From assembly GCA_001643675.2 (NCBI GenBank), contig LSRY02000022.1:62001-126000 (forward strand): 64,000 nucleotides of DNA, read 5' to 3'. Positions within the stretch are counted from its first letter, which is position 1. The number at the start of each line of letters is the position of its first letter. Made by a program: the position numbers and the translations under genes. Shown here piece by piece: positions 12,635 to 63,411 of this stretch. The DNA comes from Monocercomonoides exilis PA203 (Eukaryota; Protista; Preaxostyla). Below the pieces are notes generated by a model that worked only from the letters and a program-made list of their open reading frames with translations, ran no database searches and was not told the DNA's origin.

Positions 12635-12666
<32 letters not shown>

Positions 12667-16050: not shown

Positions 16051-16058
16051 CATTTATC

Positions 16059-21340: not shown

Positions 21341-21423
21341 CATTACAGTACGTCTCATAAGTTCATATTCAATGAGGGAATAATTGGGTTAATTGTCAAA
21401 AAGCAACTGTCAACGATTGTTAA

Positions 21424-28777: not shown

Positions 28778-31700
28778 ATGAATTTTATACTTTATTTGTT
28801 TCTATTCCGAATAATCAGTCATACCAATTGTAATATTCTAAATAATGCACAACATTCACAAAACTATAATGTATATGTGCAAAGTGGAGAGGAAATGGAA
28901 ACGCCAGATGGAACAAAAGCAAAACCATATAGATCTATGAAAACTGCTTATGAGCAGCTTACAGGAGATGAAGAAACAGGAGGATATGTCATTAAAGTTA
29001 TAACAGCAGCTGGATTGCTTACAGTGGAAGCCAATACGTTTGCAAAAAAGACAGGAATTACGATAGAAGGAGTGGACAATGCAGCAGTAGAAGAAGAAAC
29101 AAACACAAAAGTGGAGATCAACTACGGCGCTACTCTTGAAACAGATCTGTTCACATGCAAAGAAATGGTGACATTCAAGCATTTGGTGTTTGGCTTCTCA
29201 GCAACATCTGGACAAACTGAAGGCGTATTCGCTCTTATTCATGCTGCTGAGGGATCGGTTTCTCTAACAATTGAGACCTGCGAGTTTAAGCGACCTGGAT
29301 CTGGGGACAATATTGGAATCCATCTTGTGAGAGTGAGTGCAGGTTCATTGACAATGACTGGAGTTGGTTGTGCAGATGAGGAAAATGTGGCTTCATTCAC
29401 AGCAACGCCATTTTTAGTTGACGGAACAACATCAACAGTAACATTGACCGGATTGAATCTGGAGAAGATTACATCAAGTTCAAGTGCTGTGATGAAAATC
29501 ACAAGTACAAGTGAGGTTGAGATTTCATTGAATAAATGCACATTTACAGAATGTACTTCAAGCGATACTACAACAGCGACAAGTGGAGCACTTTATGTTG
29601 AAAGCGAAAATGCTGGAAGCACTTTTACTATTGGAGGCACAGACAAAACGACATTTACTTCGTGCACTTGTACCAATGGGAAATCAGGTGGGATATATCT
29701 GAAAATGACAGGAATTGCAGGTGAGAAACAATTGAGCTGGGGCACTGGTGTAAAATTGGAGTTTAGTGAGTGCACTGCAACAGGGTCAAAGAGTACAGGA
29801 TTGTATCTTGAAGTACCCGTTAATCTTCATGAGAACATAGCCGCAACCATGAAATCAAGTTTTGCACAAAATTACAAACGAACTAGCCATGAGAGTGTTG
29901 TTGTTGCAAAAGGAGAAAATAATATCGAAGTTGATTTCACTGCAAAATATTTCGATCCAGAAGAACCGCCAGCATCTCCTTCAACAATGGCATATGTGCA
30001 AAGTGGAGAGGAAATGGAAACGCCAGATGGAACAAAAGCAAAACCATATAGATCTATGAAAACTGCTTATGAGCAGCTTACAGGAGATGAAGAAACAGGA
30101 GGATATGTCATTAAAGTTATAACAGCAGCTGGATTGCTTACAGTGGAAGCCAATACGTTTGCAAAAAAAGACAGGAATTACGATAGAAGGAGTGGACAAT
30201 GCAGCAGTAGAAGAAGAAACAAACACAAAAGTGGAGATCAACTACGGCGCTACTCTTGAAACAGATCTGTTCACATGCAAAGAAATGGTGACATTCAAGC
30301 ATTTGGTGTTTGGCTTCTCAGCAACATCTGGACAAACTGAAGGCGTATTCGCTCTTATTCATGCTGCTGAGGGATCGGTTTCTCTAACAATTGAGACCTG
30401 CGAGTTTAAGCGACCTGGATCTGGGGACAATATTGGAATCCATCTTGTGAGAGTGAGTGCAGGTTCATTGACAATGACTGGAGTTGGTTGTGCAGATGAG
30501 GAAAATGTGGCTTCATTCACAGCAACGCCATTTTTAGTTGACGGAACAACATCAACAGTAACATTGACCGGATTGAATCTGGAGAAGATTACATCAAGTT
30601 CAAGTGCTGTGATGAAAATCACAAGTACAAGTGAGGTTGAGATTTCATTGAATAAATGCACATTTACAGAATGTACTTCAAGCGATACTACAACAGCGAC
30701 AAGTGGAGCACTTTATGTTGAAAGCGAAAATGCTGGAAGCACTTTTACTATTGGAGGCACAGACAAAACGACATTTACTTCGTGCACTTGTACCAATGGG
30801 AAATCAGGTGGGATATATCTGAAAATGACAGGAATTGCAGGTGAGAAACAATTGAGCTGGGGCACTGGTGTAAAATTGGAGTTTAGTGAGTGCACTGCAA
30901 CAGGGTCAAAGAGTACAGGATTGTATCTTGAAGTACCCGTTAATCTTCATGAGAACATAGCCGCAACCATGAAATCAAGTTTTGCACAAAATTACAAACG
31001 AACTAGCCATGAGAGTGTTGTTGTTGCAAAAGGAGAAAATAATATCGAAGTTGATTTCACTGCAAAATATTTCGATCCAGAAGAACCGCCAGCATCTCCT
31101 TCAACAATGGCATATGTGCAAAGTGGAGAGGAAATGGAAACGCCAGATGGAACAAAAGCAAAACCATATAGATCTATGAAAACTGCTTATGAGCAGCTTA
31201 CAGGAGATGAAGAAACAGGAGGATATGTCATTAAAGTTATAACAGCAGCTGGATTGCTTACAGTGGAAGCCAATACGTTTGCAAAAAAAGACAGGAATTA
31301 CGATAGAAGGAGTGGACAATGCAGCAGTAGAAGAAGAAACAAACACAAAAGTGGAGATCAACTACGGCGCTACTCTTGAAACAGATCTGTTCACATGCAA
31401 AGAAATGGTGACATTCAAGCATTTGGTGTTTGGCTTCTCAGCAACATCTGGACAAACTGAAGGCGTATTCGCTCTTATTCATGCTGCTGAGGGATCGGTT
31501 TCTCTAACAATTGAGACCTGCGAGTTTAAGCGACCTGGATCTGGGGACAATATTGGAATCCATCTTGTGAGAGTGAGTGCAGGTTCATTGACAATGACTG
31601 GAGTTGGTTGTGCAGATGAGGAAAATGTGGCTTCATTCACAGCAACGCCATTTTTAGTTGACGGAACAACATCAACAGTAACATTGACCGGATTGAATCT

Positions 31701-34700
31701 GGAGAAGATTACATCAAGTTCAAGTGCTGTGATGAAAATCACAAGTACAAGTGAGGTTGAGATTTCATTGAATAAATGCACATTTACAGAATGTACTTCA
31801 AGCGATACTACAACAGCGACAAGTGGAGCACTTTATGTTGAAAGCGAAAATGCTGGAAGCACTTTTACTATTGGAGGCACAGACAAAACGACATTTACTT
31901 CGTGCACTTGTACCAATGGGAAATCAGGTGGGATATATCTGAAAATGACAGGAATTGCAGGTGAGAAACAATTGAGCTGGGGCACTGGTGTAAAATTGGA
32001 GTTTAGTGAGTGCACTGCAACAGGGTCAAAGAGTACAGGATTGTATCTTGAAGTACCCGTTAATCTTCATGAGAACATAGCCGCAACCATGAAATCAAGT
32101 TTTGCACAAAATTACAAACGAACTAGCCATGAGAGTGTTGTTGTTGCAAAAGGAGAAAATAATATCGAAGTTGATTTCACTGCAAAATATTTCGATCCAG
32201 AAGAACCGCCAGCATCTCCTTCAACAATGGCATATGTGCAAAGTGGAGAGGAAATGGAAACGCCAGATGGAACAAAAGCAAAACCATATAGATCTATGAA
32301 AACTGCTTATGAGCAGCTTACAGGAGATGAAGAAACAGGAGGATATGTCATTAAAGTTATAACAGCAGCTGGATTGCTTACAGTGGAAGCCAATACGTTT
32401 GCAAAAAAAGACAGGAATTACGATAGAAGGAGTGGACAATGCAGCAGTAGAAGAAGAAACAAACACAAAAGTGGAGATCAACTACGGCGCTACTCTTGAA
32501 ACAGATCTGTTCACATGCAAAGAAATGGTGACATTCAAGCATTTGGTGTTTGGCTTCTCAGCAACATCTGGACAAACTGAAGGCGTATTCGCTCTTATTC
32601 ATGCTGCTGAGGGATCGGTTTCTCTAACAATTGAGACCTGCGAGTTTAAGCGACCTGGATCTGGGGACAATATTGGAATCCATCTTGTGAGAGTGAGTGC
32701 AGGTTCATTGACAATGACTGGAGTTGGTTGTGCAGATGAGGAAAATGTGGCTTCATTCACAGCAACGCCATTTTTAGTTGACGGAACAACATCAACAGTA
32801 ACATTGACCGGATTGAATCTGGAGAAGATTACATCAAGTTCAAGTGCTGTGATGAAAATCACAAGTACAAGTGAGGTTGAGATTTCATTGAATAAATGCA
32901 CATTTACAGAATGTACTTCAAGCGATACTACAACAGCGACAAGTGGAGCACTTTATGTTGAAAGCGAAAATGCTGGAAGCACTTTTACTATTGGAGGCAC
33001 AGACAAAACGACATTTACTTCGTGCACTTGTACCAATGGGAAATCAGGTGGGATATATCTGAAAATGACAGGAATTGCAGGTGAGAAACAATTGAGCTGG
33101 GGCACTGGTGTAAAATTGGAGTTTAGTGAGTGCACTGCAACAGGGTCAAAGAGTACAGGATTGTATCTTGAAGTACCCGTTAATCTTCATGAGAACATAG
33201 CCGCAACCATGAAATCAAGTTTTGCACAAAATTACAAACGAACTAGCCATGAGAGTGTTGTTGTTGCAAAAGGAGAAAATAATATCGAAGTTGATTTCAC
33301 TGCAAAATATTTCGATCCAGAAGAACCGCCAGCATCTCCTTCAACAATGGCATATGTGCAAAGTGGAGAGGAAATGGAAACGCCAGATGGAACAAAAGCA
33401 AAACCATATAGATCTATGAAAACTGCTTATGAGCAGCTTACAGGAGATGAAGAAACAGGAGGATATGTCATTAAAGTTATAACAGCAGCTGGATTGCTTA
33501 CAGTGGAAGCCAATACGTTTGCAAAAAAAGACAGGAATTACGATAGAAGGAGTGGACAATGCAGCAGTAGAAGAAGAAACAAACACAAAAGTGGAGATCA
33601 ACTACGGCGCTACTCTTGAAACAGATCTGTTCACATGCAAAGAAATGGTGACATTCAAGCATTTGGTGTTTGGCTTCTCAGCAACATCTGGACAAACTGA
33701 AGGCGTATTCGCTCTTATTCATGCTGCTGAGGGATCGGTTTCTCTAACAATTGAGACCTGCGAGTTTAAGCGACCTGGATCTGGGGACAATATTGGAATC
33801 CATCTTGTGAGAGTGAGTGCAGGTTCATTGACAATGACTGGAGTTGGTTGTGCAGATGAGGAAAATGTGGCTTCATTCACAGCAACGCCATTTTTAGTTG
33901 ACGGAACAACATCAACAGTAACATTGACCGGATTGAATCTGGAGAAGATTACATCAAGTTCAAGTGCTGTGATGAAAATCACAAGTACAAGTGAGGTTGA
34001 GATTTCATTGAATAAATGCACATTTACAGAATGTACTTCAAGCGATACTACAACAGCGACAAGTGGAGCACTTTATGTTGAAAGCGAAAATGCTGGAAGC
34101 ACTTTTACTATTGGAGGCACAGACAAAACGACATTTACTTCGTGCACTTGTACCAATGGGAAATCAGGTGGGATATATCTGAAAATGACAGGAATTGCAG
34201 GTGAGAAACAATTGAGCTGGGGCACTGGTGTAAAATTGGAGTTTAGTGAGTGCACTGCAACAGGGTCAAAGAGTACAGGATTGTATCTTGAAGTACCCGT
34301 TAATCTTCATGAGAACATAGCCGCAACCATGAAATCAAGTTTTGCACAAAATTACAAACGAACTAGCCATGAGAGTGTTGTTGTTGCAAAAGGAGAAAAT
34401 AATATCGAAGTTGATTTCACTGCAAAATATTTCGATCCAGAAGAACCGCCAGCATCTCCTTCAACAATGGCATATGTGCAAAGTGGAGAGGAAATGGAAA
34501 CGCCAGATGGAACAAAAGCAAAACCATATAGATCTATGAAAACTGCTTATGAGCAGCTTACAGGAGATGAAGAAACAGGAGGATATGTCATTAAAGTTAT
34601 AACAGCAGCTGGATTGCTTACAGTGGAAGCCAATACGTTTGCAAAAAAGACAGGAATTACGATAGAAGGAGTGGACAATGCAGCAGTAGAAGAAGAAACA

Positions 34701-37700
34701 AACACAAAAGTGGAGATCAACTACGGCGCTACTCTTGAAACAGATCTGTTCACATGCAAAGAAATGGTGACATTCAAGCATTTGGTGTTTGGCTTCTCAG
34801 CAACATCTGGACAAACTGAAGGCGTATTCGCTCTTATTCATGCTGCTGAGGGATCGGTTTCTCTAACAATTGAGACCTGCGAGTTTAAGCGACCTGGATC
34901 TGGGGACAATATTGGAATCCATCTTGTGAGAGTGAGTGCAGGTTCATTGACAATGACTGGAGTTGGTTGTGCAGATGAGGAAAATGTGGCTTCATTCACA
35001 GCAACGCCATTTTTAGTTGACGGAACAACATCAACAGTAACATTGACCGGATTGAATCTGGAGAAGATTACATCAAGTTCAAGTGCTGTGATGAAAATCA
35101 CAAGTACAAGTGAGGTTGAGATTTCATTGAATAAATGCACATTTACAGAATGTACTTCAAGCGATACTACAACAGCGACAAGTGGAGCACTTTATGTTGA
35201 AAGCGAAAATGCTGGAAGCACTTTTACTATTGGAGGCACAGACAAAACGACATTTACTTCGTGCACTTGTACCAATGGGAAATCAGGTGGGATATATCTG
35301 AAAATGACAGGAATTGCAGGTGAGAAACAATTGAGCTGGGGCACTGGTGTAAAATTGGAGTTTAGTGAGTGCACTGCAACAGGGTCAAAGAGTACAGGAT
35401 TGTATCTTGAAGTACCCGTTAATCTTCATGAGAACATAGCCGCAACCATGAAATCAAGTTTTGCACAAAATTACAAACGAACTAGCCATGAGAGTGTTGT
35501 TGTTGCAAAAGGAGAAAATAATATCGAAGTTGATTTCACTGCAAAATATTTCGATCCAGAAGAACCGCCAGCATCTCCTTCAACAATGGCATATGTGCAA
35601 AGTGGAGAGGAAATGGAAACGCCAGATGGAACAAAAGCAAAACCATATAGATCTATGAAAACTGCTTATGAGCAGCTTACAGGAGATGAAGAAACAGGAG
35701 GATATGTCATTAAAGTTATAACAGCAGCTGGATTGCTTACAGTGGAAGCCAATACGTTTGCAAAAAAGACAGGAATTACGATAGAAGGAGTGGACAATGC
35801 AGCAGTAGAAGAAGAAACAAACACAAAAGTGGAGATCAACTACGGCGCTACTCTTGAAACAGATCTGTTCACATGCAAAGAAATGGTGACATTCAAGCAT
35901 TTGGTGTTTGGCTTCTCAGCAACATCTGGACAAACTGAAGGCGTATTCGCTCTTATTCATGCTGCTGAGGGATCGGTTTCTCTAACAATTGAGACCTGCG
36001 AGTTTAAGCGACCTGGATCTGGGGACAATATTGGAATCCATCTTGTGAGAGTGAGTGCAGGTTCATTGACAATGACTGGAGTTGGTTGTGCAGATGAGGA
36101 AAATGTGGCTTCATTCACAGCAACGCCATTTTTAGTTGACGGAACAACATCAACAGTAACATTGACCGGATTGAATCTGGAGAAGATTACATCAAGTTCA
36201 AGTGCTGTGATGAAAATCACAAGTACAAGTGAGGTTGAGATTTCATTGAATAAATGCACATTTACAGAATGTACTTCAAGCGATACTACAACAGCGACAA
36301 GTGGAGCACTTTATGTTGAAAGCGAAAATGCTGGAAGCACTTTTACTATTGGAGGCACAGACAAAACGACATTTACTTCGTGCACTTGTACCAATGGGAA
36401 ATCAGGTGGGATATATCTGAAAATGACAGGAATTGCAGGTGAGAAACAATTGAGCTGGGGCACTGGTGTAAAATTGGAGTTTAGTGAGTGCACTGCAACA
36501 GGGTCAAAGAGTACAGGATTGTATCTTGAAGTACCCGTTAATCTTCATGAGAACATAGCCGCAACCATGAAATCAAGTTTTGCACAAAATTACAAACGAA
36601 CTAGCCATGAGAGTGTTGTTGTTGCAAAAGGAGAAAATAATATCGAAGTTGATTTCACTGCAAAATATTTCGATCCAGAAGAACCGCCAGCATCTCCTTC
36701 AACAATGGCATATGTGCAAAGTGGAGAGGAAATGGAAACGCCAGATGGAACAAAAGCAAAACCATATAGATCTATGAAAACTGCTTATGAGCAGCTTACA
36801 GGAGATGAAGAAACAGGAGGATATGTCATTAAAGTTATAACAGCAGCTGGATTGCTTACAGTGGAAGCCAATACGTTTGCAAAAAAGACAGGAATTACGA
36901 TAGAAGGAGTGGACAATGCAGCAGTAGAAGAAGAAACAAACACAAAAGTGGAGATCAACTACGGCGCTACTCTTGAAACAGATCTGTTCACATGCAAAGA
37001 AATGGTGACATTCAAGCATTTGGTGTTTGGCTTCTCAGCAACATCTGGACAAACTGAAGGCGTATTCGCTCTTATTCATGCTGCTGAGGGATCGGTTTCT
37101 CTAACAATTGAGACCTGCGAGTTTAAGCGACCTGGATCTGGGGACAATATTGGAATCCATCTTGTGAGAGTGAGTGCAGGTTCATTGACAATGACTGGAG
37201 TTGGTTGTGCAGATGAGGAAAATGTGGCTTCATTCACAGCAACGCCATTTTTAGTTGACGGAACAACATCAACAGTAACATTGACCGGATTGAATCTGGA
37301 GAAGATTACATCAAGTTCAAGTGCTGTGATGAAAATCACAAGTACAAGTGAGGTTGAGATTTCATTGAATAAATGCACATTTACAGAATGTACTTCAAGC
37401 GATACTACAACAGCGACAAGTGGAGCACTTTATGTTGAAAGCGAAAATGCTGGAAGCACTTTTACTATTGGAGGCACAGACAAAACGACATTTACTTCGT
37501 GCACTTGTACCAATGGGAAATCAGGTGGGATATATCTGAAAATGACAGGAATTGCAGGTGAGAAACAATTGAGCTGGGGCACTGGTGTAAAATTGGAGTT
37601 TAGTGAGTGCACTGCAACAGGGTCAAAGAGTACAGGATTGTATCTTGAAGTACCCGTTAATCTTCATGAGAACATAGCCGCAACCATGAAATCAAGTTTT

Positions 37701-40700
37701 GCACAAAATTACAAACGAACTAGCCATGAGAGTGTTGTTGTTGCAAAAGGAGAAAATAATATCGAAGTTGATTTCACTGCAAAATATTTCGATCCAGAAG
37801 AACCGCCAGCATCTCCTTCAACAATGGCATATGTGCAAAGTGGAGAGGAAATGGAAACGCCAGATGGAACAAAAGCAAAACCATATAGATCTATGAAAAC
37901 TGCTTATGAGCAGCTTACAGGAGATGAAGAAACAGGAGGATATGTCATTAAAGTTATAACAGCAGCTGGATTGCTTACAGTGGAAGCCAATACGTTTGCA
38001 AAAAAGACAGGAATTACGATAGAAGGAGTGGACAATGCAGCAGTAGAAGAAGAAACAAACACAAAAGTGGAGATCAACTACGGCGCTACTCTTGAAACAG
38101 ATCTGTTCACATGCAAAGAAATGGTGACATTCAAGCATTTGGTGTTTGGCTTCTCAGCAACATCTGGACAAACTGAAGGCGTATTCGCTCTTATTCATGC
38201 TGCTGAGGGATCGGTTTCTCTAACAATTGAGACCTGCGAGTTTAAGCGACCTGGATCTGGGGACAATATTGGAATCCATCTTGTGAGAGTGAGTGCAGGT
38301 TCATTGACAATGACTGGAGTTGGTTGTGCAGATGAGGAAAATGTGGCTTCATTCACAGCAACGCCATTTTTAGTTGACGGAACAACATCAACAGTAACAT
38401 TGACCGGATTGAATCTGGAGAAGATTACATCAAGTTCAAGTGCTGTGATGAAAATCACAAGTACAAGTGAGGTTGAGATTTCATTGAATAAATGCACATT
38501 TACAGAATGTACTTCAAGCGATACTACAACAGCGACAAGTGGAGCACTTTATGTTGAAAGCGAAAATGCTGGAAGCACTTTTACTATTGGAGGCACAGAC
38601 AAAACGACATTTACTTCGTGCACTTGTACCAATGGGAAATCAGGTGGGATATATCTGAAAATGACAGGAATTGCAGGTGAGAAACAATTGAGCTGGGGCA
38701 CTGGTGTAAAATTGGAGTTTAGTGAGTGCACTGCAACAGGGTCAAAGAGTACAGGATTGTATCTTGAAGTACCCGTTAATCTTCATGAGAACATAGCCGC
38801 AACCATGAAATCAAGTTTTGCACAAAATTACAAACGAACTAGCCATGAGAGTGTTGTTGTTGCAAAAGGAGAAAATAATATCGAAGTTGATTTCACTGCA
38901 AAATATTTCGATCCAGAAGAACCGCCAGCATCTCCTTCAACAATGGCATATGTGCAAAGTGGAGAGGAAATGGAAACGCCAGATGGAACAAAAGCAAAAC
39001 CATATAGATCTATGAAAACTGCTTATGAGCAGCTTACAGGAGATGAAGAAACAGGAGGATATGTCATTAAAGTTATAACAGCAGCTGGATTGCTTACAGT
39101 GGAAGCCAATACGTTTGCAAAAAAAGACAGGAATTACGATAGAAGGAGTGGACAATGCAGCAGTAGAAGAAGAAACAAACACAAAAGTGGAGATCAACTA
39201 CGGCGCTACTCTTGAAACAGATCTGTTCACATGCAAAGAAATGGTGACATTCAAGCATTTGGTGTTTGGCTTCTCAGCAACATCTGGACAAACTGAAGGC
39301 GTATTCGCTCTTATTCATGCTGCTGAGGGATCGGTTTCTCTAACAATTGAGACCTGCGAGTTTAAGCGACCTGGATCTGGGGACAATATTGGAATCCATC
39401 TTGTGAGAGTGAGTGCAGGTTCATTGACAATGACTGGAGTTGGTTGTGCAGATGAGGAAAATGTGGCTTCATTCACAGCAACGCCATTTTTAGTTGACGG
39501 AACAACATCAACAGTAACATTGACCGGATTGAATCTGGAGAAGATTACATCAAGTTCAAGTGCTGTGATGAAAATCACAAGTACAAGTGAGGTTGAGATT
39601 TCATTGAATAAATGCACATTTACAGAATGTACTTCAAGCGATACTACAACAGCGACAAGTGGAGCACTTTATGTTGAAAGCGAAAATGCTGGAAGCACTT
39701 TTACTATTGGAGGCACAGACAAAACGACATTTACTTCGTGCACTTGTACCAATGGGAAATCAGGTGGGATATATCTGAAAATGACAGGAATTGCAGGTGA
39801 GAAACAATTGAGCTGGGGCACTGGTGTAAAATTGGAGTTTAGTGAGTGCACTGCAACAGGGTCAAAGAGTACAGGATTGTATCTTGAAGTACCCGTTAAT
39901 CTTCATGAGAACATAGCCGCAACCATGAAATCAAGTTTTGCACAAAATTACAAACGAACTAGCCATGAGAGTGTTGTTGTTGCAAAAGGAGAAAATAATA
40001 TCGAAGTTGATTTCACTGCAAAATATTTCGATCCAGAACAACCACCTAAACCACCTACTCAAATTTCAATTGTTTATGTTAAGTATAATGCTGAAAGCTC
40101 TGGTTTATCATTCAATGAACCAATTGGAAGTTTAATGAGTGCATACAATTTATTCTCTTTCTCATCAAATTTGAAGATGTATTCGATGAGAATAATTGCT
40201 AACGATGATATGATAAAGGCTGAAACAATATCTTTTGAGAGAAGTGAACAATTGACAATTGAAGGAATTATTAATGCTGAAGGAAAGAATGAAATTGCAA
40301 AGATGGATTGCAAGATTAATTCAGGAAGTAATTTGTTCACATGCAAAAAGAGTGTTACTTTCAAATACCTGTCATTTGCTTTTCCATTGTCATTGAAATC
40401 AAACGGAAAGAGTCAGTTTAATGAGGTGACAGATTCGCTGGCATTGATTGTCTCAGAGGGTGGAGATTCAAAGCTCACAATAAATGATTGTGTATTTGTT
40501 CGACCAAATGCAAAGGCAAATGAGGGAGAGAACATTGCAGACATTCATCTTGTGAAGGTGAAAGCAGGAGATGTGAGTTTGGAAACAGTGAGCTGTGTTG
40601 ATGGGGAAAGCAAAGCTTCATTCCAAAAGCCTCTGATAGATATTGAAGGAGCGAAAAGAGTGATACTGAAGGGAGTAAAGGTGAGCAATGTTGAAGTTGA

Positions 40701-42760: not shown

Positions 42761-44965
42761 AAGACATGGACAAAACCCGGGAAAGTCTAATGAATAACTC
42801 AAAAAAGAAAAAGTGAATAAAGGAAATTGATATTGAAAATAACAAACGCTTTCATATTGCTCTTCAATTATTCGATGCTATCTTTTTTTGAAAATATGTA
42901 ATTTCGAAATTTTTTTTTAGAATGTTTGGATCATAAAGCTATTATGTTTGCTTTTTCTTGCAATATGTCTTCTTTTCTTTCTTCATCGGAACTTTCAAAG
43001 GTTTTAGCCACTGCAGAATTTTGAAGATTTAATTCAAAAGTTGAAAAAATTAATTTTCTTCTTTCAAGAAAAGAGATTACACACAAAAGCATTATTTCAT
43101 CTGGCTTAGTTTCTTCTTCAGCTCTATATTGACATATATCTTCTTTAAATCAGGGAAGAGATCCCCAACACAATGGCAGACCGAATTTGTTCAACAAAGA
43201 TGAACAAGAAGAAATAGAAGACTGTGCCAAATCTCTTTTTCTTTCAACGGATAAAATTACATTCAAAGACATCATTAAAATAGTTTTGTTTTTGTTTAAA
43301 AATATATATTAACTTTTTTGATGTTGTATTTTCAGGCTGAACACGTCTTGCAATGAAAAAACCGAAACAAGTATGACAACAGCGAATTGGCAGAAATTTA
43401 TGAAAAATGGGCAAGATGGTTCATAAAAAGAAGCAATGCCTTGCAAATGGTAAAACCAAAATCCATTGATGTGAAAAGGTTGTTTGCATTTTCAACGGAA
43501 AACATTTCAGCGTGGTTTTCATTGCTGGGGGAAACAATAAGAACAAACAAAATTTGCGCCGATCTGATATTAAATATAGACGAAACAGGAGTCAGTTTGT
43601 GTCAATCCGATAACGATTTCGTTATCAAACGATCAGATCAAGAAGATCCAATGTTGCACTCTCAACAACATCAGCCCAACGCAACATTGGTTTTCAGAGT
43701 TTTTGCAGATGGATCTTCTATTAATCCAGTGATGATTTGGCCCTCAAAAACTGTACCTAAAGATCTTGCAGTATTAAAATATCATCGACTAGAAATAGTG
43801 GCCAACGGAAGCGGGTGGATGACAAAAAATGACTTTGAAGAAATCATGATAAAAAACATATTACCTACAGTTAACAAAAAAAGAATTGAACTTCATGGTT
43901 CGGAAGCGTCGGCGCTTATAATAATGGATGGGCATTCATCGAGGCTTTGCTGGCCTGTTATCACATGGTGTCGTGAACATTCAATCGAAATTATTATTCT
44001 TCCTTCGCACACCGCACATTTGACACAACCGCTTGATCGCTATGTGCTTGCGCAATTCAAAAAAAGACTGAATTCATCTTTTCATCCTCCAACCGAAAGC
44101 GGAATATCGTCATATCGAAAAGCTCTTGTGCCAGCATTGGCAGATGCAGTGAGTGCTGCGTTAGAATGTAGAACTATCAAAAAATCGTTCTACGCTTGCG
44201 GGATTGAGCCATTTGATCCGTCAGTTGTTTTAGACCGACTGCCCAATCAGTCTTCAATTACAAAAATATCTTCAATTAGTTCATCGGCCCATGCTTAAAA
44301 TGGAGTATTTAACATGAAAGTTTTAACAAGTGATGATTTTATTCAGGAGAACGAACTAAGAAAAGAAGGTTTGAATATTTTCATTAAATTTGAATGAAAT
44401 AATTATCTAATTTATTCTTATTTTATTGTTCCGAGAAAAAGATGAAAGGATATTGTGTAACTTGAAAGACAGTCTGAAAAAGCAAATATCAGAGAGGAAA
44501 GCAAACGAGGATAAATGCGATGGGAAAACAAAATGCAAGATATCAGAACAAACTCGTGAAGAAGAAATAGATGTATCTTCTTTGTTTTCAGGAGAAAAAC
44601 GAAAAAGAAAACAAGTGTCTGAAACAAAATGGGGAAAACTATTCTATTTCAGCTGTAAGTGACTTATCTTTTCAAACAATTTTGTTTTGCCACTTGATGA
44701 TAGAATTTTTTTTATTTTGTTCGATTATTTTCATATAGTCTCATATCAGCCAATGTTTCTTTTCGATAGTGATTTTGGATGCTCGTTTCATTTGTAATCA
44801 AGAAAAACATATTAAAAAAACATCGTATGATCATTTTTCAAATAAATATTTATTTTTGTTTATTTAAAAAAAAGAAATTAGGAAGTGGAGTCAATTGTTA
44901 AAAAACTTTTCAATTGATTGGACATTCCCGGGTTTTGTCCCTTTCCCGGGTTTTGTCCATGTCTT
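42761..44965 (+). mobile_element. Complete pogo/Tigger-like DDE_1 transposon (~2.2 kb), TA TSD
   Basis: 25-bp perfect TIR AAGACATGGACAAAACCCGGGAAAG (42761-42785) / 44941-44965, with a tandem inner TTCCCGGGTTTTGTCC copy at the right end. TA at 42759-42760 and 44966-44967. Confidence 0.9.
42965..44298 (+). pseudogene. DDE_1 transposase pseudogene with intron 43283-43335
   Basis: ATG 42965 and an N-terminal putative DNA-binding region with TGA stops. Catalytic motifs LNIDETG, GSGWMTK, IIMDGHSSR, LPSHTAHLTQPLDRYV. TAA at 44296 is probably premature. Confidence 0.88.
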
Positions 44966-45598
44966 TATATATGAAAATTTGAGATCATCAATCATTTATA
45001 TTCATTTTCGAAATCAAAGCAGTTTTATATGACACAGTTTTTTTTATTAAAAGTTATATACTAAAAAAACTCTGCATTTATAGATTGGAATAGGTTCGAA
45101 GGTTAACGTGACAGACCTTGAGTTAAGGGTTTTGTTCCCATTCTTTTTTCAGAGCTTGAACTCTTAAAAGTGACAAAATATTCAGCTCTGTAAATTATGT
45201 TCCACACAGTTCTTTCAAAAATATTATTCGATTTTTGATATTTTCAAATTGATTATTGCACAATAATGTCAGAATAATTATCATAATATAGCAAAAAAAG
45301 TCTGGAACAAATCTTTGTTTTTTTCATAAATGAATGAATTTCGCTCCATTAGCTCAATCTTTAAAAAATTCAGTGTTTCGTTTAAAAAAATATGGTTGAT
45401 AAGTCCATAAATGTTGTTAATCATTAAGTTTATAATTAGAGTCTTTCAGAGATAAATGTCATTTAAATAATCCAAAGAACTTTATGAAAACTTTGATTGT
45501 TCAAGAAAGTTATCTAATATTTGTCAAAATGATAAATATTCATGTTTTCGAATGATCCAATTGTTTACAAGAGATATAATATATTAATCACAAATTCT

Positions 45599-46385
45599 TC
45601 TCGATAAAAGATCAATCAATATTATCTATTTATGTATGTCTGATGGTAGTTGTTATTTTGTATAATAAGTTAGAATAAGCAGTGTGGAGAGATAGATGAT
45701 CGACACTTATTGCCAATAGAATTATCGATGACTATGAAGGCAGTGATGTTCTATAAAGAAGGAGTTATTGATAGGTGTAATCGAGATATATCTATAGCCG
45801 ACATACCATATCTCCAAGGAGGAGATTAGCTGAAAGATTCGTTTGAGGCGTTCAAGTTGGTGAAATTAGCGGGTAAATAAGTGTGAAAATTGGTGAAATC
45901 GTTTGTGAAATCGTAAATAAAAATAATTGATTTTGTTTTTTGTTTTATAGTAAATGGGTCGGAAGAAGATATACACGACTGTGGAAGAAGCGAAAGCTGC
46001 TCAACAGAAACAAATTAAACAGTATCAGGAAAAACGTAAGGAAGAAACAAAGTATTACAACGAACATGTATCTGACAAACAGAAGAAGAAGATTAATATA
46101 TTGAGGAGAAAGCTTATCGAAAGTGATGAGCTGTTAGATGAGTTGATGGAAAAAGTTAGTGAGTAAGGTGGACACGATTATATTTTTGGTTGAATGTGTT
46201 AACTGTTTTGCCTGCACAGGGTGGACAGGTTGAGCTGTACAGGTAACAAGTGTGTGCTATGGTGTGGAAATATTGGGTTAAATCTCCGTGCTGGAAGTGT
46301 GGACAGGTGAACCGGGTGGACCGGGTCAATTATATTCCAGAAATTATGTGTTCAAACGGGTTAACTGAGCAAAGTCGGAATAATA
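45599..46385 (+). repeat. Left TIR (787 bp)
   Basis: Reverse complement of 49311-50097; no mismatch seen by eye. Confidence 0.93.
45954..46166 (+). CDS. 70-aa basic helical protein within left TIR (putative DNA/terminus-binding)
   Basis: Intact ATG-TAA ORF MGRKKIYTTVEEAKAAQQKQIKQY..., preceded by a T-rich/AT-rich leader; identical in the right TIR. Function inferred. Confidence 0.75.
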   Translation: MGRKKIYTTVEEAKAAQQKQIKQYQEKRKEETKYYNEHVSDKQKKKINILRRKLIESDELLDELMEKVSE

Positions 46386-46513
46386 CATTTAATGTGAAAA
46401 TTAACTGTTATCATTGACTTTCGACGTTAACCCCGACGTCATCTTCCCCGTATATTACCGTTTCAAAAATAAATATGTTTAAAAAAAATTTTGTTTTTTT
46501 AATTTTTTTTAAA

Positions 46514-48856
46514 ATGACAAACCCCTAAACAGACTCTGACAACGTAATCCAACAATTAATTGATTCAATGTCAACAGAACAATAAACGCTGGGAGAATGA
46601 ATAAAAGATCACCTTGTTGACATGTTCGACTTCAAGATATACTCTGACAAGAAACGGGGCCAAAGACACACTGGAACAGCTGTCGATATCAGAAAATGAG
46701 AGGATTTCCGTGTTGTTGATGTTGATATTAACAAATCCCTTCAAGCTGAACAAACGAAAACCATCAGGAATTCCATTCTCGAGAAACTTCCATGAAATGT
46801 CGGACTTGTTCAAACAGCTCATGGTTGTCTTCACATTTATTGTGAGCTGTGTGGTTATCCCCTCAAATGTTCTTCACAAATCAAAGTGTTCACGAGTTGG
46901 CAGTTCGAAATCGACATTTTTGCAGGTATTGGAGATGGTTAACAGAGGCTTGTTGTTCAAGATGACTTTTCATTTAGAGAGATGAAAGATGGCAAGAGAT
47001 TCATCACCAAATACATTCCCCTCAACAATTCCAGAGAGCTCAGATATCTATCATCACTTGAGAGTGTTCTTGACATTTTCGGTATTAATCATAAAACCGA
47101 GAATACATCAGCGATAATTGCAGCTGAACCACACAATCTTCTCACACAAGATGGTGTCGTTGATATGTCTCCAACTGTCGCTCTTGCTCTTGTCGATGGA
47201 CTCAAAGATGTTGAAATACATAACGATACAAGTTCTCTGTTTCTTAATTCTGAGTTAACTCTTTTGCCGTTATTTGCAGCTCTCAACTTTCTCGTCAACA
47301 TTGACGGTTTCGACAACCAATCGATAGATTTTCTTAACACTCAAATCAAAGACTCAGCTGCTCAAACAGCAAATGCAATCACTCACCATGAAGAGAAACA
47401 AAACATATACAGAGATAACAAGTCACATCCATTTGTTCTACAAAAGATTGTCAAGAGATGGAATCCAACATATTGCAACGGTGTGATTATTCCACTTCTC
47501 AGAAAAGAGAATGAGAAAAAAAAAGAACCTCCACGAGAGATCACTGTTCATTAAATCGATCTCAACTCATCGTTCTCGTTCTCTGAAATCAGGGATAAAG
47601 CTTGTCGAAAACAATACTCCACACTGTCTGAAGTCGCTGAAGATCTCACAAAAGTTCAGAGTTTTATTGAAGCAAGGATGGAATTCATTGTGAAAGAGTT
47701 TGACATTCACTCCTCTAATTATTCAATTTCAATAAAGACAAAATCAGCAATGTGTGAATCGTTCAAAACAATAAAACTCTGGCATGATGATAATAAGACT
47801 CTCACAGTTGAGACAGCTTTCCAACAACACTCTCATGTTCTATCGATCGATAGGGTGAAGTTCTTCTCAGACAACCCTCGAATATTCTCTCTGTTCCATG
47901 GGTTCAAATACCAAATGGCAAACGAACAAAACGAAGAAATCATCAAACCATTCCTTGATTTCACACGAGAAGTTATCGCCAACAACAACGATGAACTCTG
48001 TCAATACATCCTCTGTTGTATTGAGTCAATTGTTCAAAATCCTGGTCATAAAGCAGAAACATCACTTGTTTTCAAAGGTTTGCAGGGTATTGGATAGAAT
48101 GTCTGGACAAATGTTCTTGCTGAACTGTTGGCAGGATATTCATGTCCGAATGTCACAGAGATTGCAGAACTGTCAGGACAGTTCAACTCCATCGTCGAAG
48201 GGAAAATGTTGATTGTACTTAATGAATTGAAGAATGTTGGAGATGATCGAACAGCTAACTTTGACGCATTGAAGAGTTCAATCACAAATTCAACAATCAG
48301 AATTAATGAGAAGAATCAGCCAAGAAGAACAGCTGAAAACGTTGCTAATTTCATATTTGTGACAAATCACACGTACCCTGTTAAGATTGAGATTGGTGAC
48401 AGAAGATATGTTGTTTGTGATTGTGACTCAAAATATATGAACAATCTCACATTCTTCAAGGATTTCACAAACTCTTTCAACAATGAATTCTATTAACGAC
48501 TTCTCTGTTATTTCATCATCAAAGATCTCACCAATTTCAACACTATGGCTATTCCAACAAATGAGGCAAAGGAAGATATCATTGCAGCATCACTCTCTGT
48601 CATCGATGTGTTCTGTCAGGAGCATTTCAATAAACTCAAAGAAGGGTGGAGATGTTCTGAAGCACTATGTTTCAGACCAGTTGAATACAAGAACGATCGC
48701 TCATTCCAACTGGTAATTAAAGACAAATGTGAGAGAATACGAGTAGATGGAAGGGGAGATCAAGTGTGGTGTTATAAACTTAATCCAGAGAATGAACAAC
48801 TCCTCAAACGACGAGAAGATGAAGATGACACGGACTGTTCTGTGGAAATTACCTAA
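46514..48856 (+). pseudogene. AEP (Prim-Pol type) primase-polymerase fused to D5-like/DUF5906-type SF3 helicase; 780 codons with 9 in-frame stops
   Basis: One frame with no indels. AEP motifs RVVDVD, QTAHGCLHIY and EIDIF. Helicase motifs FSLFHGF, KGLQGIG*N (Walker A, Lys codon now TAG), LIVLNE (Walker B), FIFVTN (sensor) and GDRRY. Stops at 46526, 46583, 46598, 46697, 46793, 46940, 47552, 48095 and 48494. Confidence 0.88.
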
Positions 48857-49310
48857 ACATATTCGTTTTTTTGAAAATCATTGATTCACCAACTATGCAA
48901 CTTGTGTGTGACACCTGTTATATTCCACCAACGATTCCATGTGGCAATGTGGCAAAATGATAACACTCATAAAAAACAAAAATATCTCAAAATCATACCA
49001 AATTAAGGGGAAAATGCTCATGTTGGCAGAAATGGCATGTTGGCAGCTCTTTTCAGATGAAATTAAAAGATCCGGACTGCCGGACTACCGGACTACGCTT
49101 CCAGCACGGAGATTTTAGCCAATATTTCCCTTCCCCAAGTATCTCGATATTTCCACAATTCGGTGTCCGGTTCACCGATTGACACTTTTTCAAACAAAAA
49201 TATATATGTTGACAATCAACTATAACGTCATCGTGACTACTGTTTGATACAATCTATAATACAACAAACGCGATTAGTCTGTTATATTTCGTCAATTTTC
49301 ACATAAAATA

Positions 49311-50097
49311 TATTATTCCGACTTTGCTCAGTTAACCCGTTTGAACACATAATTTCTGGAATATAATTGACCCGGTCCACCCGGTTCACCTGTCCACACT
49401 TCCAGCACGGAGATTTAACCCAATATTTCCACACCATAGCACACACTTGTTACCTGTACAGCTCAACCTGTCCACCCTGTGCAGGCAAAACAGTTAACAC
49501 ATTCAACCAAAAATATAATCGTGTCCACCTTACTCACTAACTTTTTCCATCAACTCATCTAACAGCTCATCACTTTCGATAAGCTTTCTCCTCAATATAT
49601 TAATCTTCTTCTTCTGTTTGTCAGATACATGTTCGTTGTAATACTTTGTTTCTTCCTTACGTTTTTCCTGATACTGTTTAATTTGTTTCTGTTGAGCAGC
49701 TTTCGCTTCTTCCACAGTCGTGTATATCTTCTTCCGACCCATTTACTATAAAACAAAAAACAAAATCAATTATTTTTATTTACGATTTCACAAACGATTT
49801 CACCAATTTTCACACTTATTTACCCGCTAATTTCACCAACTTGAACGCCTCAAACGAATCTTTCAGCTAATCTCCTCCTTGGAGATATGGTATGTCGGCT
49901 ATAGATATATCTCGATTACACCTATCAATAACTCCTTCTTTATAGAACATCACTGCCTTCATAGTCATCGATAATTCTATTGGCAATAAGTGTCGATCAT
50001 CTATCTCTCCACACTGCTTATTCTAACTTATTATACAAAATAACAACTACCATCAGACATACATAAATAGATAATATTGATTGATCTTTTATCGAGA
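49311..50097 (-). repeat. Right TIR (787 bp)
   Basis: Reverse complement of 45599-46385. Confidence 0.93.
49530..49742 (-). CDS. 70-aa basic protein, identical copy in right TIR
   Basis: Same peptide as 45954-46166. Confidence 0.75.
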   Translation of the reverse strand: MGRKKIYTTVEEAKAAQQKQIKQYQEKRKEETKYYNEHVSDKQKKKINILRRKLIESDELLDELMEKVSE

Positions 50098-50475
50098 TGG
50101 ATCTATAGGTGATATTCCATATCTCTCACATTAGGATTGCTTTTTCCACATTTTTGAATAAATGGAATTTGTGACTTTAGTTTATTTTAAAAGAAAATTT
50201 TAATTTTCAATTTTTTTTTTGAAGAACTGAAAAGAAAATAATGAAACTTTGAATGAAAAAGTTGGAAACAAACTCATTTTTGTTTCTTCAATAATGAAGT
50301 TGACTTTGAATGATTATGAAAACAATTTTTGAAATTAAAACTATGTGTGATTCATTAAAAATAAACCTGCGAAAATATAACACCACACCATTAAGAATGA
50401 AGCATTCTTTCAGCAGATAATCTCAATATCCTTTTCAGAACTAGTATTGATTCTTTTCAACAATAATTGAATATA

Positions 50476-50852
50476 CAGTTTGTACAAAAAATTTCTGACA
50501 AGATCGATATCTCAATAACTGCATAAGGAATAATTCTGACAATTTTCCTCAAAATACATCTCATCAACGCAAACTCATTTGATATACAAATCTTTCAAAG
50601 CAGCTTCATTTGTGCTCAGAAATAATTATTTTTGAAATTTCGGAAAAATTCAAAATCCTATTTCTCCGAGAATTCAAATATCATTTTTTCTGAGCACAAA
50701 TGAAGCTGCTTTGAAAGATTTGTATATCAAATGAGTTTGTATTGATGAGATATATTTTGAGGAAAATTATCAGAATTATTCCTCTTGCAGTTATTGTGAA
50801 ATCGATCTTGTCCGGTATTTTTTGCGATGTCCTGTATTTTTAGCATAAACTG
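50476..50852. mobile_element. Tc1/mariner-pogo-type foldback MITE (CAGTTT...AAACTG, TA TSD)
   Basis: TA|CAGTTT at 50474-50481 and AAACTG|TA at 50847-50854. Internal arms ~50497-50622 and ~50687-50812 are inverted with scattered mismatches. Confidence 0.8.
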
Positions 50853-51019
50853 TATATCAATTTATTCATAAAAATTATTGCAAAAGTTTTTTTATTTAAT
50901 ATTATTAGCATTTATGAAGCAGATGAGATAATTTATCTTCCACTGCTTTTATTTCATTTTATTTTTTTATTTATTTATTTTTTTTTTTTATTTTGCTTTT
51001 TCGAAAAGCTGATTGAAAG

Positions 51020-58050: not shown

Positions 58051-58704
58051 TTTTTCATTATTGGTTCTTTTTTTATTTTTGCATGCCAATCATTCAATAA
58101 AGCTAGATGGACCTCAACACTCGGATGAGGGTGTTTATAAAACAAAGACATTAAATTACAGGTTTGTTTTTTAAATTTTGTTTATTTTTCGTAGAGATAC
58201 AGCAAATTTTTTTATTTTTAAGTGACTTTTTTCAGCCGAGGAAGCATCTATCTATAATAATACTTTGAAACATGCATTTGGCTCCACATCTCAGATTTTT
58301 TTAATATTTTGTGCATGTGCTGTTCCCCATGTGTTGACCCCATATTCGACCCTTATTCCGCCTCATGCTCCCCACCTGGATGGATATAATTCAAAAAAGT
58401 CGAAAAAGACCAAAAATGTGACCCACAAATCTGGACTCCCAGAAGGCTCTGCAACTTTCTTTTATTTTTATTTTGAAAATTGGATTTTTCCCACACCTAA
58501 TACCAAATATTTCTGGAATCGCTTCAGCCGTTGTTTTTCTGTGATTTTTTCAACACGATTTTTTTATCATTTTTGACAAGAAAATAGATTTTCATTGAAC
58601 GAGTTTTTCATTAACTATTAACATGTATATCATGTGTTATTCTCCAAAATAATGTCAAATATTCTTTATTGAATCATATTCAATCATTCTGATGGTATTG
58701 ATAT

Positions 58705-61700
58705 GGGTCATTATTTTTCATATCGTAACTTTGTTCGAAGAAAGATCTTTTTTTTCATAATTGTGGTATGAGCAATAAAAAGCTCAAATATGTGTTAATA
58801 GGTGAAATGAAAAGGAAGTGTGAAGGAATTATTGAAAAATAAGTGAAATTGAGAAAATCTTGAAAATACCATTACAACATTTATTTTTTGGCAATTTTTA
58901 ATAAATGAATTATTTAGTATTACAACACCCAACAAGAGCAATTGTTGTTTGAAAATAATTATAATTTGAGTATGAATTAGTGTTATTACTTTTTTTTGTG
59001 ATTTGAATTAAACAACATCTGAAAATAAATGATTGATTGATTTATTACATTTTTGTGTAAAATAGCAAGGTTTATAATTTTTGTGGTTATCTTTTTGATG
59101 AAATAATTAATGTTATTAACGATGTATTTCTATTTTGAGCGATTTGAGATATTTATGCGAAGCATTGATAAACAAATATTCCATAAAAAAAGGAAAATCG
59201 AATTCGAAGCGAAGTCGAATATGCAGTTATTTGTGATTAATGTTGATTGATTTTAAAAATTGAATGAAGGATGAAGAGCTTGGGGATTGCAATCTTTTAT
59301 TGTATTGTGTTGTTGTTTCTCGTTGTTTTTTTTATTTGTTATTCGTTCCAAACATTGTGCATTATTTTATTTATTGAAATGGTTATTGTTTTTTTAAATA
59401 AATTCTTTTCTTATGTTAGAAAAAATCAATCTTTTCACTGAATTTTATAGAGATTTATCTTTTTTTTGAAAAGGTGAAATGATAAAATAAAAATCGAAAC
59501 ACTTGAATATGATGCCTCATTTCACATATGACACGGTTACGAAAAACAATGTTTTGTATTTTTTGAAGGCAGTGAACATATGAAATGAGAGAAAAAAACG
59601 AAACAGATAAAACAAATAAAAAATTCAAAGAAAAGCTCTAGAAATCATTGAAAGAAAAAAAGATTCAATAATGCTGTTTTGTTTCTTTTTTAATCAATTT
59701 GCAGCAATTTTTTGACAGAATAATTTCATGTTGCTCTGTTGTTTTGAACTTCATAGCGCTTTTTGAAAAGTTAAAACTCAGAAAAGAAAATGCTGAATTT
59801 GATTTATTTCTGATTTGCGACGCTTTTTAAGAATGGATCACAACATGAAACAATAAACAAAAAAGCCATAAAAAAACTAATATCAAATGAGATTCTACGG
59901 TTAATCTGATATCAAACGTGTGCTTTTGCAGCTTTTGTATTTTTCAGCAGAGCTTATTATTCCACTCACTTTCATTTTTCTTTCCTTTTATTCTCACTCC
60001 ATCATTCTCGCTTCCTCCTCTTTCTCTTTCTTTCCTCTTCTTGATTCTGCAGCTCAATAATTATGTCCTGCTCCAATTTCTTTTGCCACTCCCATTCCTC
60101 TTCTTCTCTTTGCTTCTCCCTTTTGTCCTCCCCTTATTTCGTTATGAACTTCTACAGGTTGCCTTGAAGCACTTTTCTCTTTTCCAGCTTCAGTGAATGC
60201 TTCACTGTCTGCTCTCTCGCAATGCACCACGCCTGGACCCCTTCTCTGAGAGTGATCTTCTCAAACACATCCTTCGCAACTTCAATTGAAAGATCAATTA
60301 TTACCGGCCTTTTTTTCATCTTCTCCTCATCTTTCATCCATCCTGCTCAGCTCCTCGACTGCCTCCTTTTCCAATGCTCCGAAATTTCCTCGTGTCCCTC
60401 AGTGACCTCTTCTCTCCTTCTGAGCTTATCGAACCAGATGTCCCATCGAGAGAAGATGACAAAGAATTGAAAAAAGCTGCCTGTGACAAAGCAGTTGAAG
60501 CTGGATGCTTCTGCTTCATCAGCCCCTGGTGCAGCATCAGATACACTTCCCTCATGCGCTTGATGCGCTTAAAGATGAATGCTGAATTCTTGGCCTCTGG
60601 TGCTTCTGCAGCTCCTTTGAGCTCCTTCTCTTTCTCTTCTTTGCATGCCTTCTTGCTCCATTTCTGCTCCAACTCCTTCCTTTTCTCCTCTTTCTCCTTC
60701 CTGATTCTTGAATACGACTTTTCTTCCATCTTGAACGTGCGTGTGAAGAACGGCAGAAGCTCCTCGTCTGACGTGAGAAGGTTCATCACAGACATCGACG
60801 GGTTTGCCTTCTACCCTGCTGCTGCTTTCCCCTGTGATGCACGATTCTGAGACACGTTGCCTTGCTGGCTCTGGTTCTAGCTCCGGCTCAGCTGCCCCAC
60901 TCCCTCTTCAGCACTTCCTTCGCTCTTCTCTTTATCATTTGCTGCCATCTTCTCGTTTTCTCCTCTTTCGGAGTCTGTCTGTTGGCTTCGTGGCTGTCCT
61001 GCTGTGTTTGTTTCGTTGACGGGATCAACTGCTCAATCTCATTGCTGTTTGCTTCATCAGCCTTCAGCATCGTCTGCTGCTGAATGAGAATATTCAGCTC
61101 ATCCTGCTCACTTTCCTCCTGCGAATCGCTCTCTCCCTCTGAACTCTCTTCTCTTTTTGCTTGTCTTCGTATTTTTGAAGCTTTTCAGAATTTTGCTGGC
61201 TTCCTTCGCTGCAACTGTCAGATGACGAGGCTTTCTGTACTGCTTCTTCATTCGCTTAGTCGCTTGCTCCACTTTCGCTTGCGTTCCCTTCTCCTTTCTA
61301 AGCTTTCCCTTTCTCCTTCAACTTCTCTTTTCTCCTTCTTTCCACGTCTTCTGGTGTGACGCTCGGAACCGATGCAATGAAAGATGAGATCTCCAACGGC
61401 TTCCCGCCAACATCTTCTTTGCCACAGATATTTTGTGCAGCTCTTCCTCTTCTTTCTCCCTTCTTTTTATCTCCTGCTGCTCTTTAAACTTCTTCATCTC
61501 ATCGTCGATCGCCTTCTGCCCAATCAACCTGATCGATGTGGGCTTTGCATTTCCATCTCTTCCTTTCTTCTTCAGAAACTCGTTCCTCTTCTTCTCATCC
61601 TGCTTCTCCAGTCTCTTCTTCTTCTTCTCTTTTCATTCTGTTTCATTTTCATAAACGCTGTCTTGTGTTTAATTCATCTGGCGATCCTTCTTCAAAGCTC

Positions 61701-62806
61701 TCAATCTATCAACAATTCCTTCAACAGCCTCAAAAAACTCACTTTTTGGCTTTCTCCATTTTCTCTTCTTCGCTTTCCTCCTCCTCTTCCTCCTCCACAT
61801 TCTCTTTCACTCCCCGTCTGCCCCATCCTCCCATTTCCTCCAAACAGTTTCCCACACACATTTCCACCCCTTCAAACCCCTTTCTGCGTGATGTTCCAAA
61901 ATGTCCCTCTGCACCCACCCAGCTCAAACACCCCCACCTCCTTGCCTCTCCCGATCTCCACACCACATCCCCTCACCACAACCACACTCCCCCTCAAATA
62001 AAACGCACTCCTCCCAATCATATCTTCAAACAGCTCAATCCATACCAACTCAACTGTCGTGTTCCTTAATTCCCTCATTTAAAAATGTTCATCTTCTTCC
62101 TTTTTCTTCATTTCATGGTGCCAATTGGCTGAAAACATCTAAAGAATAATCCTAATATCTAAATAATAAAACTGAAAAAAAAGTTAAATCCTTTTCAACA
62201 ATAGAAAAAGAAAAAAACAAACACCTCTGATTGTTTTTGTCCTTTAGAATTTTTCATTTTCGTCCATTTTCGTCTTAAAAAATATCAAAAATCCTTATAT
62301 AAATCCGTCAGCTCCGTTTTACATAATATTCCATTTGTTGTTTCATTACTTCGCATAAATATCTCAAATCGCTCAAAATAGAAATACATCGTTAATAACA
62401 TTAATTATTTCATCAAAAAGATAACCACAAAAATTATAAACCTTGCTATTTTACACAAAAATGTAATAAATCAATCAATCATTTATTTTCAGATGTTGTT
62501 TAATTCAAATCACAAAAAAAAGTAATAACACTAATTCATACTCAAATTATAATTATTTTCAAACAACAATTGCTCTTGTTGGGTGTTGTAATACTAAATA
62601 ATTCATTTATTAAAAATTGCCAAAAAATAAATGTTGTAATGGTATTTTCAAGATTTTCTCAATTTCACTTATTTTTCAATAATTCCTTCACACTTCCTTT
62701 TCATTTCACCTATTAACACATATTTGAGCTTTTTATTGCTCATACCACAATTATGAAAAAAAAGATCTTTCTTCGAACAAAGTTACGATATGAAAAATAA
62801 TGACCC
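58705..62806. mobile_element. 4.1-kb element with ~460-bp perfect TIRs, GGG...CCC termini flanked by AT(AT), carrying a decayed gene
   Basis: 58701-59162 is the reverse complement of 62349-62810. Junctions ATAT|GGGTCA and TGACCC|ATAT. No transposase recognised. Confidence 0.8.
59900..62270 (-). pseudogene. Decayed K/E-rich coiled-coil cargo gene of unknown function
   Basis: - strand ORF fragments 60152-60337, 60334-60795, 60888-61070, 61318-61527 and 61739-62078, separated by stops/frameshifts. A putative first exon (ATGGACGAAAATG...) near 62267 is followed by a GT-AG intron. Confidence 0.5.
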
Positions 62807-63411
62807 ATATAAATTTTATTTGAAGTTCAAAATTAGGCCTCTGCGACACACTTTTTTTGAGTGCAATTTGTCGGTCGAGAAATTATTCATTTGTCGAAAA
62901 TTTTGAAATGATTGTTTTTTCCCTAATTTTGCAATTCTTGAAAATATCTGACTTTCCTCAACTTCGCTGTTCCTATGTTTTTTTTTTTTTTCTTTTCTTT
63001 TTTTTTTCCTCACCATAATAATTATATTTTATGTGTTTTGAAAACAAATGAGAAATTTTTGAAAAAACTGGAGAAGATATATGAAAGGAATCAAACAGAT
63101 TGTTGTGTTCAAAAAAATACAATGATTTGGAATGGAAGTTTTTTAGGATATCATTGCTGCTGATGTGGATTTGATTAATAGAGATAATTTTAACGTTGTT
63201 ATTTTAAATGCTCTAAGAAAATTTTCTCATGAATAAGAATTGTTCTATTCATCATCTTCTTCTTCTTCCTCTTCCATTTCACCAGAACCTTTGCTTCCGC
63301 CCACTTCAACATGGCCATCTTCCATTGACACTCAATATCCATTTCGTACCACTTCATCAAAGCATCTCACATTACTCTCCACAACTCTATCTTTCATATT
63401 ACAAGTGCCTT

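Follow-up and report, generated by a model that had tools for sequence, protein, structure and literature searches.

Do the short sites with inverted arms around a primase-helicase gene of Monocercomonoides exilis form the ends of a mobile element, or are they places at which the element recombines with its target? A sequence-only reading of the window (the whole 64-kb stretch of DNA that was analysed; G+C 35%, eukaryotic sequence) had placed four 32-bp GAGATAT-N18-ATATCTC sites at 45571-45602, 45783-45814, 49882-49913, and 50094-50125. It took them to define the ends of the element, possibly as att/lox-like recombination sites or as terminal-resolution sites, the outer pair being hybrids of element and target. 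We found all four sites at these positions. The element to which they belong has the following parts.

45570..50126, no strand: whole element of 4,557 bp, belonging to a multi-copy family and delimited by its arms and by contig depth falling to single copy beyond 50126; termini 5'-AGAGATAT...ATATCTCT-3'
45570..45605, plus strand: left outer site (terminus), a degenerate variant peculiar to the studied copy
45606..45779, no strand: left loop, ~175 bp, non-coding, between outer and inner site
45780..45814, minus strand: left inner site, the terminal site inverted and facing the interior, also kept in other copies
45954..46166, plus strand: 70-aa ORF of the left arm, basic, predicted to be all-helical
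46514..48856, plus strand: primase-D5/SF3 helicase gene with nine in-frame stops and no frameshift
49051..49204, plus strand: direct duplicate of arm segment 49353-49517, older and gapped (score 77 vs a shuffled maximum of 48, n = 200)
49530..49742, minus strand: 70-aa ORF of the right arm, an identical copy
49882..49916, plus strand: right inner site, 32/32 identical to the left inner site
49917..50090, no strand: right loop, in the window an identical mirror of the left loop
50091..50126, minus strand: right outer site (terminus), near the family form, with predicted pairing to the right inner site

At each end an outer site was followed, 180 bp further in, by an inner copy in inverted orientation, and both ends lay in inverted arms of 836 bp (45570-46405 / 49291-50126) that were 98% identical. 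The primase-helicase and the 70-aa ORF made up the entire gene content; the ORFs and Pfam matches of the element included no pPolB, integrase, capsid, recombinase, or nuclease gene, and Rfam gave no match within 45400-50900. The left and right flanks of the element showed no likeness to each other beyond that of shuffled sequences. A small imperfect palindrome was present in the middle of the loop (45692-45736), with a score of 32 against a shuffled maximum of 29 in a weak control.

The exact pattern GAGATAT-N18-ATATCTC occurred twice in the 64-kb window (45783 and 49882) and was absent from 100 shuffles; since the two matches are mirror copies inside the arms, they amount to one independent occurrence. 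The right outer site agreed with the inner site at 26 of 32 positions, the same count as in the sequence-only reading. This likeness was inverted (26/32, compared to 13/32 in direct orientation) and extended ~15 bp into the loop beyond the 32 bp. The left outer site, which had been described as a degenerate variant, agreed with the inner site at 19/32 positions, a level that was not above background by itself, as eight further positions in the window likewise reached 19/32. However, 11 of its 13 differences were transitions (P ~1e-4) and it mirrored the right outer site in position, both of which support its being a variant. The two outer sites matched each other at 21/32 positions, with transitions at eight of the 11 differences. 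Palindromy was confined to the 7-bp arms, giving 14/32 self-complementary positions and none in the spacer. A 35-letter pattern of the site had no match in viral contigs, and the 7+18+7 pattern with one mismatch allowed had none in seven relative loci, none of which reaches an element end. A single match to a 19-letter site pattern in locus L008 was taken as chance, the rest of the site being absent there.

Other copies of the element were seen via contigs of four public runs from one sample, possibly the window's own source. For the right end, 38 contigs of run X2 were placed on 50035-50215 at 80% likeness. Their summed depth was 2838 at 50119-50125, 459 at 50126-50132, and 91.8, from one contig, starting at 50133. 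The excess at 50126-50132 corresponds to about one extra matched base, and depth here does not equal copy number and counts inner sites too. At least five X2 contigs continued behind 50126 into unrelated flanks (agreement 0.48), and at least two continued behind 50125 with interior-like sequence, as inner sites do. For the outer spacers of other copies, seen in three contigs (45608, mirror 50088), a hand count on the consensus letters gave agreement with the right outer site at 16-17 of 21 positions. Because other copies match the full outer site and diverge at its outer edge, the whole outer site is element sequence, and the element ends in 5'-AGAGAT.

The contigs therefore bear out the part of the sequence-only reading in which the sites mark the element's ends and are conserved, outer and inner alike, among other copies. 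They speak against its two further proposals, that the outer sites are hybrids of element and target and that the motif contains the breakpoints, since the site is matched over its full length by other copies, which diverge at its outer edge, 50126. Judged by contig depth, the family has tens of ends. The left outer variant had single-copy depth (45555-45595, at 88% likeness); no other copy matches it at 88%, so it is peculiar to the studied copy. One exact contig bridged each junction, and no empty allele was present among the contigs. A solo 245-bp unit was found neither within the window nor among the listed loose ends of the contigs.

Integration without a target-site duplication (TSD) had also been proposed, and the studied copy indeed shows no clear TSD. 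At the AG termini its flanks read TTTACA and CACATT, with only a 2-bp CA repeat, and with the termini moved inward by one base the flanks matched at 4/6 positions (chance 0.05). A TSD of Maverick length, 5-8 bp, was absent at this one old copy, where it would have been lost through decay or when copies recombined. Flanks of other copies had no fixed target in common (agreement 0.48), and no fixed TA was seen at the flanks of the studied copy or in the contigs of other copies. Sola3 elements have GAG ends and a TTAA target, and an assignment to them was rejected, the flanks lacking TTAA. A Helitron-like A/T insertion was set aside too, as the TC and CTRR ends given in the available part of PMC2817418 were missing. 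The right flank holds a palindromic, MITE-like sequence (50485-50824; 165-nt arms at 90% identity) at a distance of 360 bp from the element; it bears no relation to the terminal unit.

Arm identity was perfect over 787 bp (45599-46385 / 49311-50097), and mismatches flanked this tract at both its ends. Three arm differences lay close to the inner boundary. On the outer side the arms differed at 11 of the 21 positions of the outer spacer (45578-45598) and were identical again over the outermost 8 bp (45570-45577 / 50119-50126). The earlier statement that arm identity stops inside the outer sites was thus right about the break but not about the outermost 8 bp, where identity resumes. The divergence of the left outer spacer exceeded the expectation from 10% decay (P = 6e-5; P = 0.02 at 20%). 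Since the perfect arms adjoin a dead gene with nine stops, they were made alike recently. The simplest reading is that gene conversion between the arms, with this old copy in place, probably made them alike; conversion that stopped short, rather than a crossover in the motif, would then account for the identity break 29 bp from the ends. The left-spacer divergence and the missing TSD would both follow if two different insertions had recombined.

In favour of conversion, an exact arm contig had a depth of 190 in X2, ~2x single copy, and both X2 junction contigs ended 30 bases into the shared tract; against it, exact arm contigs had only 1.1x and 1.5x single-copy depth in X1 and X3, respectively. 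The loop middle was covered in X1 and X2 only by a contig with 15 differences and in X3 by a flank-anchored contig with 12. Such contigs could be mosaics put together from near copies; alternatively, the arms could have been merged at this place in the assembly. Because the contig coverage of the loop differs from the window, arm identity in the loop is not backed by contigs. Conversion also agrees with the survival of the older duplicate at 49051-49204, which resembled other copies' loose ends at 46266 and 46308, and with an identity of 99-99.8% between the arms of two further long inverted repeats in the window.

The primase-D5-helicase frame comprised 780 codons with nine stops and no frameshift and matched PF19263 and PF05272; one of the nine stops sits in the Walker A motif. 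It matched MONOS_12125, an intact M. exilis protein, at 84%, and a 198-member T. vaginalis cluster and gut-metagenome proteins at ~40% (36 matches, 7995 candidates scored). At least 15 of 40 members of the T. vaginalis cluster were named as Prim-pol domain family. The N-terminal primase domain had no Pfam match of its own, and the name primase comes from these source names and from whole-protein PHROG primase matches that lie over the helicase part.

Of TvMav3 elements, the class-3 Mavericks of Trichomonas vaginalis, 91.8% have a primase gene, which is accompanied by DUF4108, A32 ATPase, pPolB, and integrase, and in many cases by HNH, according to the available part of supplementary tables 4-5 of PMC12289875. 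In locus L007, a 40% identical primase-helicase homolog had DUF4108 (26.7 bits, cut-off 27), an A32-like ATPase, and pPolB (PF03175) as neighbours, and the homologs in L002 and L003 had A32 and HNH neighbours. Positions 1-9384 of L007, a contig filed in a bacterial MAG, form a class-3-Maverick-like element that is probably from a gut protist. Cluster P0017 is tied to TvMav3 by names and by this gene context of L007. From this one gene, we infer that the element's sole enzyme gene would come from the class-3 Maverick lineage.

Features of the ends are consistent with such an ancestry to different degrees. Vertebrate Mavericks end in (AG)3 or (AGT)2, as given in the available part of PMC8097293; the element begins AGAGAT, which is (AG)2 and not the full (AG)3, and the motif compared is a vertebrate, not a protist, one. 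The 836-bp arms fall within the Maverick TIR range of 100-1500 bp (available part of 10.1101/2023.08.22.554363), while TvMav3 TIRs are 100-130 bp in the accessible text of PMC12289875. For M. exilis, six capsid genes are listed in the portion of PMC10120064 table S1 at hand, the accessible part of the PMC10748475 supplement gave no match, and M. exilis was absent from the best 120 of 527 protein matches to the L002 ATPase. Lacking pPolB and an rve integrase, the element is at most a non-autonomous Maverick derivative. Because of its gene content and the absence of a TSD, we do not file it as a Maverick, though in its working it is like a Maverick derivative.

The 70-aa ORF matched MONOS_17995 at 86%. 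It had five distant relatives, and a set of 1.84 billion representatives gave six relatives with E values up to 0.001, none of them with a function. The protein belonged to no Pfam or PHROG family. Its predicted structure has three helices (pLDDT 74.6), and its best Atlas match of 0.87 is a lead only. Three viral loci matched only its first 30-41 residues, and L005, one of these, had no layout in common with the element. The highest contig depth of the left end was found at 45924-46170, the region of the 70-aa gene, with up to ~250x single copy in X2, which suggests that this region exists in more copies than the terminal unit.

The reading that we favour, at about an even chance, takes the outer sites as the termini of an element that is non-autonomous, derives from class-3 Mavericks/Polintons, and would depend on an integrase supplied in trans. 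This integrase would cut and join where the outer site has its outer edge. For an end-binding protein, the inverted inner copy, 180 bp further in, would be a putative second binding site, and this arrangement would work like the two-site ends of Sleeping Beauty, the element itself lying outside that family. Arm-to-arm gene conversion would later homogenise the arms, halting 29 bp short of the ends.

Other explanations turn on how the ends fold and on what the 245-bp unit is. Each end had been expected to form a ~245-nt imperfect hairpin, which the predictions supported on the right but not on the left. The right terminal 245 nt gave a predicted fold-back (z = -3.0, 0/200 shuffles as good) with a predicted end-to-end pair probability of 0.79-0.89, and its outer-inner duplex had -25.7 kcal/mol, a strength reached by 0/1868 random 35-mers. 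The left terminal end had no predicted fold-back (z = +0.27; pair probability 0.05-0.07). It is possible, if unlikely, that the terminal site pairs with the inner site in a displaced strand and that the 3' end primes copying, with the primase-helicase assisting, which would make the sites replication origins or terminal-resolution sites of parvovirus-type replicons. Such self-priming agrees with the fold and duplex of the right end, with outer and inner sites being inverted and not direct, and with an element that has a helicase-primase and no protein-primed polymerase. It also agrees with the commonest base of other copies at 45799, which brings inner and outer sites closer together (some of these contigs may be outer sites). 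It fits poorly with the left end, with the very last base of the element, which would face a G in the inner site, and with an element without a nuclease gene, and it leaves integration unexplained. In a flip/flop check over four runs, 0/6 listed joints changed strand, a weak point against it as the contigs are short and drop variants. We regard it as rather unlikely that the element is a minimal linear replicon, the natural complete form of an undescribed family, whose 245-nt fold-back ends would self-prime and whose Maverick integrase would be borrowed. Such a replicon would hold a primase-helicase and one small arm-encoded putative end-binding protein, without a protein-primed polymerase, and would amount to a transpoviron-like Maverick satellite that is integrated in the genome of an amitochondriate protist.

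The 245-bp unit might instead be a MITE of an unrelated DDE family, two inverted copies of which carry Maverick-derived cargo, much as IS pairs carry cargo in Tn5 and Tn10. We consider this quite unlikely. The unit does have ~50-bp imperfect terminal inverted repeats, no ORF, and the size of a MITE, there are DDE_1 transposase genes in the window, and a 2-bp CA repeat flanks the element. However, the listed loose ends past the inner sites (45825; 50125) were interior-like and not unrelated flanks, the inverted arms reach 590 bp past the unit and take in the 70-aa gene, and the flanks of other copies have no common fixed target (agreement 0.48). As for att/lox-like sites, the hybrid form of that proposal fails because of the boundary, which lies outside the site, and because of the geometry, 7-bp arms and an 18-bp spacer being a misfit; no recombinase is encoded. 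A modified form, in which a recombinase would insert the core at the inner edge of the outer site, in already present, element-derived palindromic footprints whose outer 29 bp would be older than the core, appears very improbable to us. The sharp identity boundary at 45599/50097, the outer spacers being more variable than the arms, and the lack of a TSD would suit it, but gene conversion explains the boundary too, the element has no recombinase gene, the site geometry is unlike att/lox, and no listed loose end at 50097-50098 marks an empty footprint.

The rest of the window holds further repeats. An 8.8-kb structure without a long ORF (12567-21343) has arms of 3,488 nt that are 99.8% identical, and parts of the sequence around it are found again at 3692-3752, 21357-21421, and 24196-24253. 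At 58697-62814, inverted arms of 482 nt (99%) enclose 3.2 kb resembling an intron-split host gene on the minus strand, a possible Pack-type element. A short palindromic, MITE-like element with 146-nt arms at 99% lies at 2253-2569. ORFs for DDE_1 (pogo-like) transposases were found at 43387-44298 (plus strand) and 398-1198 (minus strand), the former with short inverted ends near 42760 and 44960, of which the right one is doubled in tandem. A surface-protein-like gene with a C-terminal membrane anchor contains ten near-identical tandem units of 1119/1120 nt (~29000-40200); these lengths are not divisible by three, which suggests frameshifts or assembly errors.

Unclassified repeats account for ~35% of the M. 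exilis assembly (available part of PMC8767320). The element family would name some of them, and it supplies an exact terminal signature for mining. A small derivative reduced to the ends, a primase-helicase, and one small protein points to the cis-signals important for the excision and replication of Maverick-type elements. Should replication be primed from the inner site, the mode would be one not described for Maverick-type elements; should the inner site be no more than a second binding site, as in the reading that we favour, and the element a decayed derivative, its value would be modest and mostly a matter of annotation. Our search of openly accessible papers found no literature on the element family.

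Among known systems, att/lox sites are alike in having ~32 bp with short inverted arms. Core sites of tyrosine recombinases have arms of ~11-13 bp and a spacer of 6-8 bp, whereas the element has 7-bp arms, an 18-bp spacer, a family boundary outside the site, and no recombinase. Parvoviruses and AAV have hairpin termini, flip/flop, an HUH nuclease, and an SF3 helicase. The element shares with them an SF3 helicase and an end-to-inner-site complementarity able to fold back; it differs in having no HUH nuclease, a long unpaired loop, no flip/flop in the listed joints, and a decayed left end. Transpovirons and Tlr1, as described in the available part of PMC3671162, are likewise small and linear, encode a helicase, belong to the Polinton network, and rely on other elements. 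They have an SF1 helicase, and transpovirons are tied to giant viruses, whereas the element has an SF3 primase-helicase and many chromosomal copies. The IR/DR ends of Sleeping Beauty (available part of PMC7827188) also carry two similar ~30-bp sites per end within ~220-245 bp, the outer one terminal. Those sites are direct repeats bound by a Tc1 transposase and have a TA target, whereas the element's sites are inverted, with no transposase encoded and no fixed TA at the flanks. With TvMav3 and other Polintons, as far as the accessible part of PMC12289875 describes them, the element has in common the primase-D5 helicase family (40%), TIRs, a 5'-AG terminus, and many decayed chromosomal copies. 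Compared to their 15-26 kb, it is 4.5 kb long and lacks pPolB, integrase, ATPase, and capsid genes, and it has gene-holding 836-bp arms, a second inverted end site, and no 5-8-bp TSD. An inverted second copy of the end site at each end is an unusual arrangement, and the element is likely a variant on the Maverick-type theme.
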